Assembly (NCBI GenBank): GCA_951406725.2 | Contig: CATOCA020000003.1 | Coordinates: forward strand, 558,001 to 622,000 | DNA length: 64,000 bases | Direction of reading: 5' to 3' | Origin: Octopus vulgaris | Taxonomy: Eukaryota | In this document: one piece after another, positions 4,236 to 46,368 of the stretch | Position numbering within the stretch: position 1 is the first letter of the stretch | Layout of the letters: the number at the start of each line of letters is the position of its first letter | The notes under the pieces: model-generated | Told to the model about the DNA's origin: nothing | Database searches by the model: none | What the model saw: the letters and a program-made list of their open reading frames with translations, nothing else | Position numbers and translations under genes: made by a program

Positions 4236-4673
4236 TAGAATCGAAAAATAGATGAACATCAATGGAATTTGTGTCCTTGTGGTACCAGTGCCGGTGGCAC
4301 ATAAGAAAACCATCCGAACATGACCGTAGCCAGTACCGCAATGACTGGCCTCCGTGCTGAGGGCACGTAACAAACACCATCCGAGCGTGGCCGTCCGCCA
4401 GCCTCGTCTGGCACCTGTGTCGGTGACACATAAGAAAACACCATCCGAGCGTGGCCGTCTGCCAGCCTCGTCTGGCACCTGTGTCGGTGGCACATAAAAT
4501 CACCCACTACACTCTCGGAGTGGTTGGCATTAGGAAGGGCATCCAGCTGTAGAAACACTGCCACATCTGACTGGCCTGGTGCAGCCTTCGGGCTTCCCAG
4601 ACCCCAGTTGAACCGTCCAACCCATGCTAGCATGGAAAGCGGACGTTAAACGATGATGATGATGATGATGATG
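4236..4673 (+). mobile_element. RTE LINE 3' UTR fragment with 4 tandem modules and (GAT)n tail
   Basis: Reverse-complement match to 24079-24560; ends ...GGACGTTAAACGATGATGAT. Confidence 0.88.
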
Positions 4674-4715
4674 ATATAACGTGTGTGTATGTATATATAT
4701 ATATATATATATATA

Positions 4716-5280
4716 TAAAACGACCAAAACGCCCCCCCCCCACCGTCCAATGGATGGTTCTAAGTTATCAAACATTTAAACCAAATTTTCTCAAAACAAC
4801 TTGTCCGACCGTCCCATAGGCCTCCCCTTTCGTCAAACACTGACTTAACTTAAATCTGAGACACCAGCAAAAGAAGAAATAAAGATAGACTTTTTTTCTA
4901 TTCCAAAGAAAAACGATTTTATTCACACAAATATGCAACTGAAGAGTTTAAAGTACCAGTAATGATAAGGCTGTTGACTGGAAGAACACAAATATGGTTT
5001 AAACAGTAAGTTTGGCAGGAATGAAACGTGCCTTTAAGCTGTACAAAAACAAGAAAAAATGGAAGGTACAATTATGTACAGGTTGTCGGAAGAAAAGCAG
5101 GACAAAAACAGCTTTATCGATTGCATTCTCACCTGGAATCTATTTTGGTAATTTTTTCAAAACTTATACATGCCCTGATACCATTGGTATCTACATATCA
5201 AATTTGAGCGCAATCGGATGGAGGATGCCTGAGATCCGAGAAGACACACACACAGACAGACAGAATGAATTTTATATAGA
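4716..5280 (-). mobile_element. Probable non-autonomous Helitron, 5' part
   Basis: Minus strand starts TCTATATAAAA followed by a (TCTG)n/(TG)n tract, the same architecture as the Helitron 5' ends at 46577 and ~55365. No 3' hairpin/CTAG is visible. Confidence 0.5.
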
Positions 5281-9307: not shown

Positions 9308-11101
9308 TCATCATCATCATCATCATTTAGCGTCCGCTTTCCATGCTAGCATGGGTTGGACGGTTCAACTGGGGTCTGTGAAGCCAGAAGGCTGCATCAG
9401 GTCCAGTCTGATCTGGCAGTGTTTCTACGGCTGGATGCCCTTCCTAACGACAACCACTCTGTGAGCGTAGTGGGTGCTTTTTATGTGCCACCCGCACAGG
9501 TGCCAGACGGAGCTGGCAAACGGCCACGGACGGATCGTGCTTTTTACGTGCCACCGGCACGGGGCCAGGCAAGGCTGGCAACGGCCACGAACGGATGGTG
9601 CTTTTTACGTGCCACCGGTACGAGGCCAGTTGGGGCGGCGCTGGCAACGGCCACAAACGGATGGTGGTGCCAGACGAGTCTGGCAAACAGCCACGAACGG
9701 ATGGTGCTTTTTTACGTGCCACCGGCACGGGGGCCGGGCGAGACTGCCAAACAACCACGAACAGATGGTGCTTTTTATGTGCCACTGGCACGAGGCCAGT
9801 TTGGGCGGCGCTGGCAACGACCACATTCGGATGGTTCTCTTACGTGCCACTGGCACTGGGAACTCAGCTGCAATTTCCATTGATCGATTTCAATTCTAAT
9901 CCTCACTTGCCTCAACAGGTCTTCACAAGTAGAGTTTTGTGTCCCAAGAAGGGAAGGTATGCATAAGTGGGCTGGTTACATCCCATGTAGAAGGCCATGG
10001 GTTATGGTCTCACTTGTCCTGCCGGGTCTTCTCGCGCACAGCATACTTCCTGAGGTCTCGGTCTCTAGTCATTTCCTCGGTGAGACCTAAACTTCGAAGG
10101 TCGTGCTTCACCACCTCGTCCAAGGTTTTCCTGGGTCTGCCTCTTCCACAGGTTCCCTCAACCGCTAGGGTGTGGCACTTTTTCACACAACTATCTTCAT
10201 CCATTCTCGCCACATGCCCATACCAGTCCAAACGTCTCTCTTGCACACCACAACTGATGCTTCTTAGGTCCAGCTTTTCTCTCAAGGTACTTACACTCTG
10301 TCGAGTATGAGTACTAACATTACACATCCATCGGAGCATACTGGCTTCATTTCTTGCGAGCTTACGCATATCCTCAGCAGTCACGGCCCATGTTTCATTG
10401 CCATGTAGCATGGCTGTTCGTACACACGCGTCATACAGTCTGCCTTTTACTCTGAGCGAGAGGCCTTTTGTCACCAGCAGAGGTAAGAGCTCTCTGAACT
10501 TTGCCCAAGCTATTTTTACTCTAGCAGTTACACTTTCAGCACACCCGCCCCCGCTGCTGACTTGGTCACCTAGGTAACAGAAGCTATCAACTATTTCTAG
10601 TTTTTCTCCCTGGAAAGTGACAGAAGTTGGTCTCAGAGCATTTTCAGTGTATATTGTTCCTGAGCATCTGCCACATACAAAAACCATCTTCCTAGTTAGC
10701 CTTCCTTTGACATTGCTGCACCTCTTATGTGTCCATAGCTTACACTTGGTGCATCTTATAGAGTTTCTACCTACACTTTTTCTACAGATCGAGCAGGGCC
10801 ATCTACCTGAAGGCGTTTGTGATTTGTCTACCTTCCTGCTGATTACGACTTTGGTTTTAGCTAGATTGACTCTAAGGCCCTTCGATTCTAATCCTTGCTT
10901 CCACACCTGAAACTTCTCCTCCAGTTCTGATAGTGACTCAGCAATTAGAGCAAGGTCATCAGCATAGAGGAGCTCCCAAGGGCATCCTGTCTTGAATTCC
11001 TCCGTTATTGCCTGGAGGACTATGATAAATAAGAGGGGGCTGAGGACTGAGCCTTGGTGGACCCCTACCTCTACCCAGAATTCTTCACTGTACTCGTTGC
11101 C
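9308..11101 (-). mobile_element. 5'-truncated RTE-clade LINE (RT C-terminus, zinc finger, 3' UTR array)
   Basis: VGVHQGSVLSPLLF...ELLYADDL, a Cys-rich finger (CSICRK...CTKCKLWTHKRC) and GRGRPRKT. Stop at 10010, followed by a 3' UTR with modules and a (GAT)n tail. Confidence 0.95.
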
Positions 11102-24078: not shown

Positions 24079-25958
24079 CATCATCCTCATCATCATCGTT
24101 TAACGTCCGCTTTCCATGCTAGCATGGGTTGGACGGTTCAACTGAGGTCTGGGAAGCCCGAAAGCTGCACCAGGCCAGTCAGATCTGGCAGTGTTTCTAC
24201 AGCTGGATGCCCTTCCTAACGCCAACCACTCCATGAGTGTAGTGGGTGCTTTTTATGTGCCACCGACACAGGTGCCGGACGAGGCTGGCGAACGGCCACG
24301 CTCGGATGATGTTTTTTCGTGCCACCGACAGATGTGCCAGACGAAGCTGGCGAACGGCCATGCTCGGATGGTGTTTTTTACGTGCCACCAACACGGAGGC
24401 CAGGCGAGGCTGGCACGGCCACGATTGGATGGTGGTTGTTACGTGCCCACAGCACGGAGGCCAGTCGATGCGGTACTGGCTACGGCCACGTTCGGATGGT
24501 TTTCTTATGTGCCACCGGCACTGGTACCACAAAAATACAAATTCCATTGATGTTCATCGATTTTGGTTTGTTTGATTTGATTTTCACTTGCCTCAACAGG
24601 TCTTCACAAGTAGAGTTATGTGTCCCAAGAAGGAAAGGTATGCATAAGTGGACTGGCTACGTCCCAGGTAGAGGCCATGGGTTATGGTCTCACTTGTCCT
24701 GCCGGGTCTTCTCACGCACAGCATACTTCCATAGGTCTCGGTCTCTAGTCATTTCCTCGGTGAGACCTAAACTTCGAAGGTCGTGCTTCACCACCTCATC
24801 CCAGGTTTTCCTGGGTCTACCTCTTCCTCAGGTTCTCTCAACCGCTAGGGTGTGGCACTTTTTCACACAACTATCTTCATCCATTTTCGCTACATGACCA
24901 TACCAGTGCAAACGTCTCTCTTACACACCACAACTGATGCTTCTTAGGTCCAACTTTTCTCTCAAGGTACTTACACTCTGTTGAGTATGAACACTGACAT
25001 TACACATCCATCGGAGCATACTGGCTTCATTTCTTGTGAGCTTACGCATATCCTCAGCAGTCACGGCCCATGTTTCACTACCATGTATCATGGCTGTTCG
25101 CACACATGCATCATACAGTCTGCCTTTTACTCTGAGCGAGAGGCCTTTTGTCACCAGCAGAGGTAAGAGCTCTCTGAACTTTGCCCAGGTTATTCTTACT
25201 CTGGCAGTTACACTTTCGGCACACCCACCCCCGCTACTGACTTGGTCACCTAGGTAACGGAAACTATCAACTATTTTAAGTTTTTTCCCTGGGATGTGGC
25301 AGAAGATGGTCTCAGAGCATTTTCAGTCTTTATTGAACCAGAGCATCTGCCACATACAAAAACTATCTTCCTAGTTAGCCTTCCTTTGACATTGCTGCAC
25401 CTCTTATGTGTCCATAGCTTACACTTGGTGCATCTTATAGAGTTCCTACCTACACTTTTTCTACAGATCGAGCAGGGCCATCTACCTGAAGGCGTTTGAG
25501 ATTTGTCTACCTTCCTACTTATTAGGACTTTGGTTTAGATAGATTGACTCTAAGGCCCTTCGATTCTAATCCTTGCTTCCACGCCTGAAACTTCACCTCA
25601 AGTTCTGACAGTGATTCAGCAATTAGAGAAAGGTCATCAGCATAGAGGAGCTCCCAGGGGCATCCTGTCTTGAATTCCTCTGTTATTGCCTGGAGGACTA
25701 TGATAAATAGGAGGGGGCTGAGGACTGAGCCTTGGTGGACCCCAACCTCCACCCGGAATTCTTCACTGTACTCATTGCCAACCCTCACCTTACTAACAGC
25801 GTCCCTATACATGGCACGCACAGCTCTCATTAACCATTCATCAATCCCTTGTTTCCTCATTGACCACCAGATAATGGATCAGGAGACCCTGCCAAAGGCT
25901 CTCTCCAAGTCAACGAAATCCAGGTACAGAGTTTTATCTTTGGCTAGGTATTTCTCCT
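24079..25958 (-). mobile_element. 5'-truncated RTE LINE nested in the hAT element
   Basis: RT motifs VGVHQGSVLSPLLF and LLYADDL, zinc finger, frameshifts, 5 UTR modules and a (GAT)n tail. Confidence 0.95.
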
Positions 25959-32315: not shown

Positions 32316-35300
32316 AAAGGTAATGCCTTAGATAGAAAAAACTACAGAGGTATCAAGCTGTTGGATCAGGTCATGAAAATTACAGAGAAAGTTACAGCTC
32401 AATTGATTAGGAATAGAGTTAAACTAGATGAGATGCAGATTGGTTTTGTTCCTGGGAGAAGTACTACAGATGCCATCTTCCTAGTGAGACAGCTGCAAGA
32501 AAAGTATTTGGCCAAAAGTAAACCACTGTACTTAGCCTTCATCGACCTGGAGAAAGCTTTCGACAGGGTTCCCCGCTCTCTTATTTGGCGATCTCTAAGG
32601 AAGCCAGGAGTAGAGAAGTGGCTTGTTAGAACCATACAAGCCATGTACAGCAATGCTGTCAGTAAGGTGAGAGTCAGCTTTGAATACAGTGATGGCGATA
32701 GTATACAAGTTGGAGTTCACCAGTGATCAGTTCTAAGTTCATTCTTATTTATCACAGTTCTCCAGGCCATAACAGAGAAATTCAAAATTGGAATCACATG
32801 GGAACTGCTATATGCTGATGACTTAGCTCTTCTTGTAGAATCTGAAGCAGAATTGGAGAAGTTCCCGATTAGGAAGTAAAAGCTGGAATCAAAGAGCTTT
32901 AAAGTTAACCTAGCAAAGACTTAAAGTTGTTGTTGGCAAGAAAGCAAAGACTCTCTTTCTTCAGGAAAATGACCCTGCTCAATATGTAGGAAGGGAGTGG
33001 GAAGTAATTCCATTTGTTGCACCAAGTGTAAGCTGTGGACACATAAGAGATGCAGTGGAACCAAAGGAAGGTTAACAGATAAGGTCACTTTCATGTGTGG
33101 CAGATGCACAGGAACAATAGGCACTAAGAGCACATGGGACTTAGACTCAATCAAATGCCCAGGCGGCTCTCTTGACATAGTAGATAGTTTCTGCTACTTA
33201 GGTGAGAAAATTAGTAATGGTGGTGGATGTTCTGAAAGTATTGTTTCTAGAATAAGAATAGGATGGAAGAAATTCAAAGAGTTACTACCTCTGTTGGCAA
33301 CAAAAGGATTCTCTCTTAGAGTGAAAGGTAGATTGTGTGAGAATGGCCACACTCGTGGTAGTCAAACATGGGCTCTGAATGCAGAGTACATGCATAGACT
33401 GGAGAGGAATAAAGGTAATATGCTCTGTCGGATTTGCAACATCAGTGTGCATGACCGACAAAGTGCAACTGTGTTGAAAGAAAAGTTAGGCATAAGAGGG
33501 ATTAAATGTCGCTTCAAGAGAGGAGAATGCATTGGTCTGGACATGTGATGCATATGGGTAAAGATAACTCTATGCAGAAGTGCCAACCACTGAAAGTGGA
33601 TTGTACCTGTGGAAGAGGGAGACCCAAGAGGACATGGAATAAAGTGGTGAGGACTGATCTTAGGATGTTAGGGCTCATAGAGGAAATGACAATAGATTGA
33701 GATGTTTGGCAATATGAGATTCTAAAGAAGTCCCACCTATGTCAGTGAAACTGAGTTCTAGAAGCAGTGTTCCACTCACATGTAACATCAAACTTTTCAC
33801 ACACCCTACCCCAAGAAACCAAACTACATCTCCTCTTCTAAACTGTATCTTTCTCTTCTTTACATTTCTTTTTCATAAACTATGATTGTCTTCCAATCCC
33901 CTTTCCTGCCCTCACTGTCCTGCTCACTGTTTTGCTGCTTTCCCCCCACCCTATCTTTATACCCAGGTTTTCACCAGTCACGGCAATCCCCACTCTTTAC
34001 TTGCGCCTTCTTGGCAATACCTGACCATGTTTATTATGACCTCAGTACCTCTCTCCTCATTACTCTACCATCACATCTATGCTCTGATTCATGTTACTTG
34101 TGAGTATGCCCTGGCACTTCACCAGCTCTCTCTTGCACTTTTACTGTTACTTACTCTTTCTTTCCTTTTCCCTTGCTCTTCCCTCTGGCTAGGTACCCAT
34201 GTATGCACTCTACAGCAGCACACCTGTTTCTGCCCTGATTCTTGATCACTCACTGTCTCTCCTACTTTTGCTCTTCCCTCTGACTAAAAGTATCTCTTTT
34301 ATATCAGCACACCTGTTTCTGTCCTCTTTCTTATCCTCTCTCTCTCTCTGAGTAACCATGTACCTCCTCAATAGCAAGACACCTGCTTCTGCCTCTCTGT
34401 CTCACTCTAACCTTTCATCCTTTAACACAAGTTCCCTCCTCAAATGCCCCTGCCTCTCTCAAAATTCCTTGTCTTGTGAGTTACTTGGTGACCCTGCCAG
34501 TGCTGGTGCCACTTAAAAAGCATCCAGTCTACACTATAAAGTGGTTGGCATTTGGATGGGCATCCAGCTGTAAAAAGCATGCCAAAACTAACCTCACTTG
34601 TGCTAGTCCCACATAAAAAACACTGAGTCCACTCTACAGAGTGGTTGGTGTTAGGAAGGGCATACAATCATAAAAACCCAGCCAAAAGAGACACAGCAGC
34701 CTAGAATAGTCTTCTACCTGGCCAACTCCTGTCCACCATCCTACCCATGCATGCATGGAAGACAGACGTTAAATGATGATGATAATGTTATAAGTTCCAT
34801 CACAGGACATATTTTCATCTATCTTTTGATCTCTAGTTCATTTCTTATAAGATAAAAGAAAACTAAACCATTTAATATAGATTTGTTAGTCTGGCTTGTA
34901 TTCTTCCTTCACTTTACAATCGGGTAGGAATATTTACCTTGGTCAAACTTAATATCTATACAGAATCAAGTCAAACTTTTCTTCGTCATTTATATTTTTG
35001 ACATATACTTTGAAGGTATTCTCAAAAAAGACATGTGTAAAGCTGAACTGACTCCTTGACATATTTCATGCAATACCTTATTCTCTCAATGATAATTCCT
35101 GATGGTAGATCAGGACGAATCTTGGTTTTCTGACTTTGTGATCTCTGGAATTCTAGGATTTACAAGAGGTGAACAGGACTGAAAGCATTTTACTTTTTCT
35201 CTACTTCAACAAGATTGTAACCAAATGCCTCCTATGCTATTGCACTTCTGAAATCATTGTTTTGTTTATCAGAAGCTGCTTAGCTCATCCCCTAGCTCCT

Positions 35301-43259: not shown

Positions 43260-43727
43260 AGATATAATGGTGTCATTGAGACCCAAAGGTATCAGGTAAT
43301 GCTGAATAGGTGCTATAGACAGACCATAGTTAAGTTCCAGATTCAGTACTATTGCGAATAAAGGGGTCAACATTGGTTCTATGTCAGCGTGTGTATATAT
43401 AAATTTTTGTGTAATGAGATAAAAAAAACCAAGGCTATATAGAGCATTTACAGATAGGTCTTACAGCTGTTTCTAGAATATTAATTAATAATAACATACC
43501 TTCATCGAAGACAGTGTGAGAGGAAAAGTTAAGTCATAGTTACATCAAAACTAACTACATAAGTCACATCGAAACTAACTATGACTTAACTTTTCCTCAC
43601 ACAGTCTCCGATAAAGGGATATTATTATTAATTAATATTCTAGAAACAGCTGAAAGACCTTCTATCTATAAATGCTCTAATATCTATACAGCCTTGGTTT
43701 TTTTTATCTCATTACACAAAAAATTCA
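43260..43727. mobile_element. Penelope-type non-coding element as inverted duplication with two degenerate hammerhead cores
   Basis: Arms ~43401-43541 and ~43575-43725. Cores are GTCT-(C/T)CGAT(G/A)A...GAAAC-AGCT-G(T/A)A-AGAC at 43458-43512 (-) and 43604-43658 (+). Confidence 0.72.
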
Positions 43728-43735
43728 TATATATA

Positions 43736-46262
43736 TCATCATCATCATCGTCGTTTAACGTCCGTTTTCCACGCTAGCACGGGTTGACCGAGGTCTGGGA
43801 AGCCAGGGGCTGCACCAGGCTCCAGTCTGATCTGGCAGTGTTTCTACAGCTGGATGCCCTTCCTAATGCCAACCACTCCGCGAGTGTGGTGGGTGCTTTT
43901 TAAGTGCCACCTGCACAGGTGCCAGACGGGTCTGGCATCGTCCACGATCGGTTGGTGCTTTTTATGTGCCACCGGCACAGGAGCCAGTCGAAGCGGGGCT
44001 GGCATCGGCCACGTTCGGATGGTGCTTTTTATGTTCCACCGGCACAGAAGCCATTCGAGGCGGGGTTGGCATCGGTCATGTTCGGATGGTGCTTTTTATG
44101 TGCCACCGGTACAGAAGCCAGTCGAGGCGGAACTGGCAACGGCCATGTTCGGATAGTGCTTTTTATGTGCCACCTGCACAGGTGCCAGAGGGGTCTGGCA
44201 TCGGCCACGATCGGTTGGTACTTTTTATGTGCCACCGGCACAGAAGCCATTCGAGGCGGGGTTGGCATCGGTCACGTTCGGATGGTGCTTTTTATGTGCC
44301 ACTGGCACAGAAGCCTGTCGAGGTGGCACTGGCAACGGCCACGTTCGGATGGTGCTTTTTATGTGCCACCGGCACAGGTATCACTACTACTATTTCCATT
44401 GATATTTGTTTCGATGTTCATGTACATGCACTTGACTCAACAGGTCTCCTCAAGCACAGCGAGATGTTCCGGGATCCAAGATACTTTGAATGGGCAGGGG
44501 CTATGCGGAACTGGTGCCGGAAGCATCCCGGGTCTTAGTAGTCACAGCACATCTCCAGAGATCTCGGTCCTTCGCCATTGCCTCAGTGAGGCCCAACGCT
44601 CTGAGGTTATGCTTGACTACCTCATCCCATGTCTTCCTGGGTCTACCTCTCCCCCCGATTCCTTCAACTGTTCGGGAGTGGCACTTCTTCACACATCTCT
44701 CCTCATCCATCCGCAGTACATGACCATACCATCGCAAGCGTCGCTCTTGCACACCACATCTGATGCTTCTTATGCCTAGCATTTCTCTCAGGGTGCTTAC
44801 ACTCTGTCGTGCATTCACACTGACATTACACATCCAGCGGATCATGCTAGCTTCATTTCTTTCAAGTCTACGCATGTCCTCTGCAGTCACGGCCCATGTT
44901 TCACTGTCGTGAAGCATGGCAGTTCGCACACATGCATCATACAATCTACCTTTCACTCTGAGTGAGAGACCCTTTGTTGCCAGTAGGGGTAGGAGCTTTG
45001 TAAACTTTGCCCAGGCTATTCGTATTCTAGTGATGACACTCTCTGAGCATCCACCCCCACTACTAACTTGGTCACCCAGGTAGCGGAAACTATCAACTAC
45101 TTCTAGTTTCTTCCCCTGGAGTGTGATGGAATCTGTTTTCTGAGTATTTGTGGTGTCTATTGTCCCTGTGCATCTGCCGCACATGAAAGCTATCTTATCA
45201 GTTAATTTCCCTTTGATGTTGCTGCACCTCTTATGCGTCCATAGCTTACACTGGGTGCATCTTATGGAGTTTCTACCTACACCTTTCCTACAGCTCGAGC
45301 AGGGCCACCTGTCCGATGGGGTGTGTGCTGAGTTCGCCTTTCTGCTTACTATAACTTTGGTCTTCGCTACATTTACTCTAAGGCCCTTTGATTCTAACCC
45401 TTGTTTCCACACATGAAATTTCTTTTTTAGTTCCGGTAGTGATTCTGCTATGAGGGCCAGGTCATCAGCATAGAGGAGCTCCCAGGGGCAACCTGTTTTG
45501 AATTCCTCTGTTATTTCCTGGAGGACTATGATGAATAAAAGGGGACTGAGGGCTGAGCCTTGGTGTACACCTACTTCTACCTGGAATTCTTCACTATATT
45601 CGTTGCCAATCCTAACCTTGCTGACAGCCTCTCTGTATAGAGCCTGTACAGCCCTTATTAGCCATTCGTCAATCTCCAGTTTCCGCATCGACCACCAGAT
45701 AAGGGACTGGGGAACCCTGTCAAAGGCTTTCTCCAAGTCCACAAAAGCTATGTAGAGGGGTTTATCTTTAGCTAGGTACTTCTCCTGCAGTTGTCGGACC
45801 AGGAATATAGCATCAGTAGTGCTTCTACCCAGCACAAAACCGAACTGCATCTCATCTAAGCAAATTCTCTCCCTAATGAGATGGGTTATGACCCTCTCTG
45901 TGACCTTCATCACCTGATCCAACAGTTTAATACCCCTGTAGTTATTTCTATCTAGAGCATCACCCTTACCCTTGTAGCAGTTGACTATGGTGCTGCTACG
46001 CCAGTCATTGGGTATGATTCCATTATGAACTACCTGGTTAACAATACGGGTGACTAGGCCATAGCCCACATAACCAGCTGTTTTAAGCATCTCAGCAGTG
46101 ATACCTGATGGGCCGGGGGCTTTACCTGGTTTCATACCCTTAATTGCCTTAACTACAAGGGAACTGTCTATTTGGATAGCTGGTCCCTCTACTGGGTCAA
46201 TATTTGGCAGGCTCTCCTCCTCCCATTCATTCTCCACATTCAGCAGTCTTTCATAAGGCTTA
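43736..46262 (-). mobile_element. Young 5'-truncated RTE LINE with uninterrupted RT ORF and 8-module 3' UTR array
   Basis: The 44501-46262 frame is open for ~587 codons (KAPGPSG, NYRGIKLL, DLEKAFDRV, GVHQGS, YADDL, Cys finger). It is followed by the array and a (GAT)n tail. The APE domain is missing and the ATG in the ORF track comes from flanking TA. Confidence 0.96.
43892..44376 (-). repeat. Tandem array of 8 structured modules (62-67-bp period) in the RTE 3' UTR
   Basis: Core GGTGCTTTTTATGTGCCACCGGCAC starts at ~43892, 43954, 44021, 44088, 44155, 44217, 44284 and 44351. Confidence 0.95.
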
Positions 46263-46368
46263 TACATATATATACATATCTTCCTCTGCTGCTACCCCAT
46301 TCTCATTCCTTGAATTTCTTCCTTGTCTCTTCTTGGCTTCATCTATAACCAGGATGATTCTGCTCTAA

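Follow-up and report, generated by a model that had tools for sequence, protein, structure and literature searches.

Tandem predicted pseudoknots in the 3′ UTR of an RTE-type retrotransposon of Octopus vulgaris correspond to a single 5′-UTR element of its relatives

Small H-type pseudoknots occur in tandem in the 3′ UTRs of tobamoviruses, where the upstream pseudoknot domain holds a fixed number of them and the RNA has a tRNA-like end. Units that vary in copy number are also known from the UTRs of retrotransposons, such as the VNTR of SVA and the 5′ monomers of mouse L1, which are inherited in subfamilies and expand after insertion. In vertebrate A-clade R2 elements, the element's protein binds a pseudoknot-hinge-stem in the 3′ UTR that is required for insertion (PMC11601368). 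In RTE elements, a conserved 5′-UTR domain, which is also the Ceph domain of SINE bodies, has been described by sequence and is present in a single copy, or in two copies in AviRTE (PMC5786205). The same source describes bipartite nonautonomous RTE elements (Bov-A, RTESINE, and RTE-N), in which a 5′-UTR piece is followed by the RTE tail and a microsatellite, and it leaves open why RTE-derived SINEs and bipartite elements keep the 5′-UTR piece and what conserved SINE bodies do. Our literature search found no description of the array reported here or of a pseudoknot in the RTE 5′-UTR/Ceph domain; it did not extend to Repbase or Dfam, to patents, or to subscription papers (among them the first reports on Ceph-SINEs and on octopus SINEs), any of which may contain the sequence.

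The window studied here is a 64-kb stretch of Octopus vulgaris DNA. A sequence-only reading had reported a tandem array of pseudoknot cores in the 3′ UTR of an RTE LINE, and the array is confirmed by its positions and by shuffling. Eight cores lie on the minus strand, with starts at 44375, 44308, 44241, 44179, 44112, 44045, 43978, and 43916 and spacings of 67, 67, 62, 67, 67, 67, and 62 nt, between the stop of the RT ORF and the (GAT)5 tail. With up to 3 mismatches allowed, 20 cores are found in the window and none in each of 10 shuffles, indicating that the array is not due to chance. The features are as follows.

44501..46291, minus strand: 5′-truncated RTE ORF that reads through to its stop codon and encodes an RT domain and a PHD-like finger (ORF scan, domain search)
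44379..44500, minus strand: subfamily-specific 3′ UTR spacer, re-duplicated along with modules in some copies
43917..44378, minus strand: seven internal modules, each a predicted pseudoknot core (about 25 nt), a linker, and a GCCA/UGGC hairpin with a variable loop
43892..43916, minus strand: terminal pseudoknot core (predicted), 18 nt upstream of the conserved motif, homologous in position to the single core of relatives
43874..43891, minus strand: short CACUC/GAGUG hairpin in the interval between core and motif
43830..43873, minus strand: conserved RTE 5′-UTR-type motif (GTTGGC...GGGCATCC) that includes RGCY and a stretch rich in A; a GGUUGG/CCRGCY stem is predicted
43754..43790, minus strand: RTE 3′ tail, a near-palindromic hairpin and GGACGTTAAA; the same tail lies directly 3′ of the stop codon in the relative L272
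43735..43749, minus strand: (GAT)5 microsatellite end
4288..4720, plus strand: second copy, with 4 cores, of another subfamily, including a stem-2-broken module
9310..9860, minus strand: third copy, with 6 cores, of another subfamily, with a C-G closing pair
24085..24525, minus strand: fourth copy, with 5 cores
34495..34785, plus strand: RTE end of family B, two core-plus-motif units and then the tail; source of the A-U stem-2 pair

The unit numbers first read from the four copies (4, 6, 5, and 8) are correct as counts, but the copies belong to different subfamilies. Similarly, each unit had been described as a core, a linker, and a hairpin; all eight cores are present but only seven linker-hairpins, and the linker as quoted is exact in 2 of the 7 and the GCCAG/CUGGC stem in 4 of the 7. 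The array contains a higher-order duplication of 263 nt, and all 8 stem pairs are intact in five of the eight cores of this decayed copy. In family B, a long pyrimidine-rich 3′ UTR (33750 to 34490) lies ahead of the two core-plus-motif units. Adjoining the end of the copy that carries the array is a palindromic element with nested inverted arms of 33 to 65 nt (43401 to 43725), which is probably a MITE.

The ORF encodes 596 amino acids in an open frame, with an RVT_1 match (E = 6e-29, domain search) and a weak PHD match. The PHD-like finger (residues 331 to 374) is an insertion on the C-terminal side of the RT domain that recurs in many relatives; it is a candidate RNA- or chromatin-binding part. 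An AP endonuclease lies upstream in longer copies of the element (L197, L202, and L207), and its start is reached in 3 of 20 extended copies, in keeping with frequent 5′ truncation. Protein relatives are single ORF products of 1,044 to 1,135 amino acids with 47 to 57% identity, most of them with both endonuclease and RT domains. The 5′ UTR of the element consists of tandem pyrimidine-rich monomers of about 440 to 480 nt (5′ ends L214, L216, L221, and L237), which show no relation to the 5′ UTRs of the relatives seen and recall the promoter monomers of mouse L1. With its single ORF for AP endonuclease and RT, its microsatellite 3′ end, and its frequent 5′ truncation, the element fits the RTE clade, to which it is assigned by these features. 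A very short 3′ UTR is typical of RTE (PMC2887409); here some 750 nt separate the stop codon from the tail, compared to about 50 nt in L272. The terminal motif occurs in 86 copies in 1.2 Mb of sampled DNA, corresponding to about 200,000 copies per genome. It was also found in 20 sequencing runs under four organism labels, with no RNA run among those listed, and assembling motif reads from four runs gave short contigs that merge many copies and carry no strand or end information.

The location of the core and motif differs between this genome and relatives. An exact search of metagenome contigs for the motif downstream of the core (GTTGGCGT) gave 81 stretches, 80 of which were fetched, in 35 clusters. 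At 9 of the 80 loci, the N-terminal part of an RTE ORF follows shortly after the motif, and all four of the downstream frames tested contain a PF03372 endonuclease. In L153, it lies upstream of an internally deleted RTE ORF and terminates a twister-P1 match (E = 3e-7, below the gathering score). The motif was not seen between an ORF stop and a tail at any of the 80 loci; in L115 and L272, the ORF is followed first by its own short tail and then by a motif-bearing 5′ UTR. A tail-like word follows the motif by 58 to 210 nt at 26 of the 81 loci, by a loose pattern that also matches 14 of the 81 upstream controls, and a bipartite layout of 5′-UTR piece and tail is clear by eye in L123, L142, L151, L155, and L182. 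In this genome, among 64 motif copies, the tail is present in 57, the C terminus of the RT lies upstream in 12, and an endonuclease lies downstream in none. Conversely, neither core nor motif was found within 1.3 kb of the endonuclease in any of 27 5′ ends of the element. The core and the motif lie 5′ of the ORF in relatives and 3′ of the ORF here, where they stand 89 nt ahead of the RTE tail as they do in ORF-less bipartite elements. What differs from those bipartite elements is that their type of end is here fused to an autonomous ORF as its 3′ UTR.

No match to the motif was found in viral contigs. Among prokaryote genomes there were 18 matches, some chance-like and about 10 resembling eukaryotic RTE ends inside binned contigs; five of these loci were examined further (L272, L275, L276, L280, and L287). 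The L272 contig is labeled bacterial and looks like eukaryotic contamination. In L115 (500 to 1241) and L272 (560 to 1250), a 5′ UTR and an ORF start of the same type come within about 500 nt after the end and tail of an RTE ORF, an arrangement that is head-to-tail or circularly assembled.

The link to the described 5′-UTR domain comes from the family represented by L113 and L115, in which the conserved RTE 5′-UTR (Ceph) domain of Kojima runs directly into the core and motif. This one bridging family suggests that the core is homologous to that domain. The terminal segment of the Ceph domain (stem 1, GG loop, stem 1′, A-rich loop, CC) is matched by the core, whereas the upstream stem (TAGCCTTGG...CTAG), although present in the L113/L115 family, was not found in the array or in any of the 27 5′ ends of the element itself. 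Thus, in this element only the terminal pseudoknot of the domain is recognizable, and it is multiplied at the 3′ end instead of residing in the 5′ UTR. The motif downstream of the core had been likened to a MetaSINE motif. It is not the Meta-domain and corresponds, by its location in relatives, to an RTE 5′-UTR motif: GGGCATCC is absent from the supplement text of PMC4824008, where the Meta-SINE sequences differ from it and the Meta-domain is 66 bp long. A tRNA-derived SINE head was likewise rejected, as the RT ORF lies upstream instead and no Rfam tRNA was found in 43600 to 44600.

Several lines of evidence indicate that the isolated core probably folds as an H-type pseudoknot. The topology claimed by the sequence-only reading is backed by changes between families: stem 1 varies from GUGC/GCAC to GUGA/UCAC and GAGA/UCUC, and the outer pair of stem 2 is G-C, G·U, or A-U. 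A pseudoknot descriptor without stem sequence, run on 62 distinct regions upstream of the motif, matched 3 of them compared to 7 of 620 shuffles, and found no such pseudoknot in the other 59. All three matches lie 16 to 19 nt from the motif, compared to 18 nt here, and consist of GAGA/UCUC with GGUG/UACC, CGAGA/UCUCG, and GUGA/UCAC with GGUG/CACU. In family B (30 loci of this genome), the two cores read GGUGC/GCAUC and AGUGC/GCACU, and the outer stem-2 pair of the latter has A in 27 of 30 facing T in 24 of 30. Among 11 hand-picked representatives, 89.9% of the cells pair and four pairs change on both sides. Their covariation score of 0.263 lies above that of every shuffle and of every slid register (up to 0.123 for the latter); it is not a probability, as the rows are related and chosen by hand. 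Stem 2 shows one independent two-sided change. For the junction base, pairing with one of the two stems or with both is seen in 10 of the 11 rows, so that a 4-bp stem 1, a 2-nt loop 1, and a 5-bp stem 2 fit equally well as the register proposed earlier. At the end of the Kojima domain stands GGAG...CUCU or GGGG...CCCU, and the GG and terminal CC there hardly vary (PMC5786205 supplement, by eye); this end appears to share the pseudoknot topology of the core.

The arguments first offered for the pseudoknot, by contrast, were weak. The loop-1 base does not vary freely: it is C in 42, T in 6, and A in 4 of 52 internal modules and C in 24, A in 11, T in 9, and G in 3 of 47 terminal ones, so that T agrees with CpG decay and A is for the most part a trait that terminal modules inherit. 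The coordinates quoted for loop-1 variants mark the right modules but are up to 8 nt off. The switch of the closing pair from C-G to U-A consists of two CpG transitions. We set aside an association across modules at this pair (25 C-G, 9 C·A, 22 U·G, and 27 U-A; P = 0.013), given the relatedness of the copies and the fact that each change is a CpG transition. At 24.4 kb, a stem-2 variant that looks compensated is private, occurring in none of the first 100 listed of the 3,030 genomic matches of its module. We also rejected GUGA/UCAC within the 26-bp arrays of this genome as compensation, since A also faces C there.

Folding energies are marginal. A plain 6-bp hairpin is predicted at −8.0 kcal/mol, and the pseudoknot is estimated at −6.3 to −9.6 kcal/mol, a range that brackets the hairpin. 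In a nested fold of the whole array (z-score, −1.8), stem 1 has a probability above 0.9 in one of eight cores and the hairpin in two of the five matched, as cross-pairing between modules outcompetes local stems.

Could the element act as DNA? A promoter or enhancer moved to the 3′ end might drive the downstream neighbor, as the 3′-end promoter of HeT-A does. The 5′-UTR origin of the unit agrees with such a role, as does the succession in L115 and L272 of an ORF end and a 5′ UTR of the same type. However, the two-sided base-pair changes indicate RNA, an ORF start follows none of the 64 motifs, and the element has a separate monomeric 5′ region, so that we regard this explanation as very unlikely.

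A self-cleaving ribozyme array is the least probable reading and one that we give hardly any weight. Twister and HDV-like ribozymes do occur in RTE 5′ UTRs (PMC8501958, PMC6765202; see also L153), but no Rfam ribozyme family matches the array, while the same search did find twister-P1 in L153. Moreover, cleavage in the 3′ UTR would part the ORF from the priming tail, yet 12 of the 64 copies keep the RT end joined to it.

The sequence-only reading had compared the array to tobamovirus 3′ UTRs and taken the (GAT)n end as a sign of a poly(A) substitute. In such a role, tandem pseudoknots would replace poly(A) and recruit ribosomes or block exonucleases. The array shares with the tobamovirus domain tandem small H-type pseudoknots, predicted ones in this case, in a 3′ UTR and differs in having no Rfam match and no tRNA-like end; the analogy is not supported. 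In 43600 to 44600, Rfam gave no match at E ≤ 10, viral 3′ pseudoknot, tRNA-like, and ribozyme (twister, HDV-like, pistol, and hammerhead) families included. Microsatellite tails are normal in RTE (PMC2887409), so that (GAT)n calls for no poly(A) substitute. In addition, core material is kept in short elements without an ORF, and the retention of such material in ORF-less elements and in Pol III SINEs (PMC5786205) argues against a role in translation only or as a promoter only. A role in translation or stability agrees better with relatives, in which the motif lies just upstream of the ORF and, in L153, directly after a twister ribozyme; uncapped RNA past a twister needs cap-independent translation (PMC8501958, PMC6765202). 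On balance, we consider this role unlikely.

The number of cores varies widely. The 30 nearest copies have 4 to 23 cores per element by the stricter of two patterns, the looser one overcounting; as they were picked by similarity to an eight-core query, this sample is biased toward long arrays. Separate loci have junctions of larger duplications in common, one junction in 5 and another in 3 of the 30 copies, indicating that array variants are inherited from master elements. In another subfamily (L329 and L333), the unit of tandem repetition is a block of about 335 to 370 nt that spans the end of the ORF, the spacer, and three modules, and the loci have a junction in common. Bare 26-bp core minisatellites occur at four loci (L320 to L323) with 69, 69, 138, and 41 units, and at two of them the array is still followed by motif and tail; these loci show locus-specific higher-order patterns. 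At about 200,000 motif copies, the element is a major source of minisatellites in this genome.

These findings raise the possibility of a neutral VNTR, in which the pseudoknot mattered in the ancestral 5′ UTR and is a passenger at the 3′ end, the array being an ordinary minisatellite seeded by a retrotransposon. The range of core numbers and the bare-core loci agree with this, the more so as at least 77 of the 138 units of one locus carry a variant that breaks stem 1. So does the abundance of a module whose loop, GUGG or GAGG, impairs or disrupts stem 2: it has 3,030 exact genomic matches, compared to 327 when the canonical loop is combined with an identical loop 3, and among the first 100 listed matches, 69 have GUGG, 28 GAGG, and 3 GCGG. 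On the other hand, the closing pair is pairable in 14 of 15 module-type consensuses (233 of 340 modules), with none C·A, while the hairpin loops vary in length and sequence; the A-U stem-2 pair is fixed in family B, which is located 3′ in this genome; and the units amplified in at least three families (62 to 67, about 100, and 26 nt) all include the core. We find neutrality somewhat improbable. The presence of the core in all of these units might stem from selection for additional binding sites or from stalling of the RT at the structure.

The same observations contradict a modular device in which every module matters: stem-breaking modules are fixed in successful subfamilies, and cores form minisatellites. 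The stem-2-broken module holds a fixed position in its subfamily, and together with its some 3,000 matches and the bare-core minisatellites, this makes extra core copies look partly redundant. Conservation is not distinctly higher in terminal than in internal cores: full stem 2 is present in 36 of 47 terminal and 30 of 52 internal cores (P = 0.056), with six of the internal misses resembling register artifacts.

The reading we prefer, with a probability of roughly 0.5, is that the array consists of tandem copies, at the 3′ UTR, of a predicted pseudoknot found once per 5′ UTR in relatives and likely is a signal that loads the RT of the element onto its own RNA. RT/RNP loading would be the most likely of the four roles suggested earlier (translation, stability, exonuclease resistance, and loading). 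We infer that the RTE protein recognizes the element, because this 5′-UTR material is kept in ORF-less elements and Pol III SINEs, for which translation and a Pol II promoter are unneeded (PMC5786205), and because the vertebrate R2 protein binds the pseudoknot-hinge-stem needed for insertion (PMC11601368). R2 would be the closest functional model, with a pseudoknot, a linker, and a hairpin near the 3′ end of a non-LTR RNA; the likeness is one of layout, as R2 belongs to another clade and has a single copy at the very end, whose function was shown by structure and mutants (PMC11601368). The feature is best described as a structured cis-element of a non-LTR retrotransposon, relocated from its 5′ end to its 3′ end and increased in number, whose core is probably a pseudoknot and whose function we would propose with moderate confidence.

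Under the loading reading, an ancestor would have exchanged its short tail for a bipartite end (5′-UTR piece and tail), probably by template switching, and captured it as its 3′ UTR. The ancestral 5′ UTR would have been replaced by new monomers, with loss of the domain from that end. Units may then have duplicated through the shared core and short microhomologies, both in master elements, as the junctions inherited across loci suggest, and after insertion, as in the minisatellites. One or a few intact cores, likely including the terminal one, would suffice. Unlike the units of SVA and L1, which also vary in number within a UTR, the unit here is a predicted structured RNA module with a traceable 5′-UTR origin.

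It is tempting to extend this across animals, with the RTE 5′-UTR domain (the Ceph SINE body) as an unrecognized RNP-assembly pseudoknot signal. This lineage would have moved the signal 3′ and, on several independent occasions, multiplied it to give a multivalent array under selection for capturing the element's protein in competition with some 200,000 other ends, with copy number tuning retrotransposition. We hold this extension to be rather unlikely, and a role for copy number in particular is doubtful. A defined pseudoknot with natural compensatory variants nonetheless makes the question of the retained 5′-UTR pieces and SINE bodies testable, and a lineage in which the signal moved 3′ provides a natural experiment on the importance of position. 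Gene-insertion platforms based on RTE-1 rely on both cognate UTRs (PMC13708176), so that mapping a loading signal would have practical value.

A second conserved structure may be formed by the terminal motif (43830 to 43873, and L111 to L190). Immediately after the motif, 34 of 34 clusters have A or G, and the next two bases are G (32 clusters) and C (32 clusters), as fits the GGUUGG/CCRGCY stem; an A-rich stretch and TGC come next in 17 of 34 clusters compared to 65 of 234 control windows, one strand being fixed by the search. Other structured-looking modules fill the slot before the motif, namely, a GTCG-TAARAGG-CGAC type without an Rfam match (L126, L144, and L111) and the twister ribozyme of L153; L280 also belongs to this group. 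The upstream part of the RTE 5′-UTR domain can be drawn as a small H-type pseudoknot in OegopSINE (130 to 153; CCC/GGG, GCUA/UAGC, and an A-rich loop; PMC5786205 supplement), and part of the Deu-domain of BivaMD-SINE1 (CGTGTC...GGCACG, A-rich, CCC; PMC4824008 supplement) is loosely core-like.
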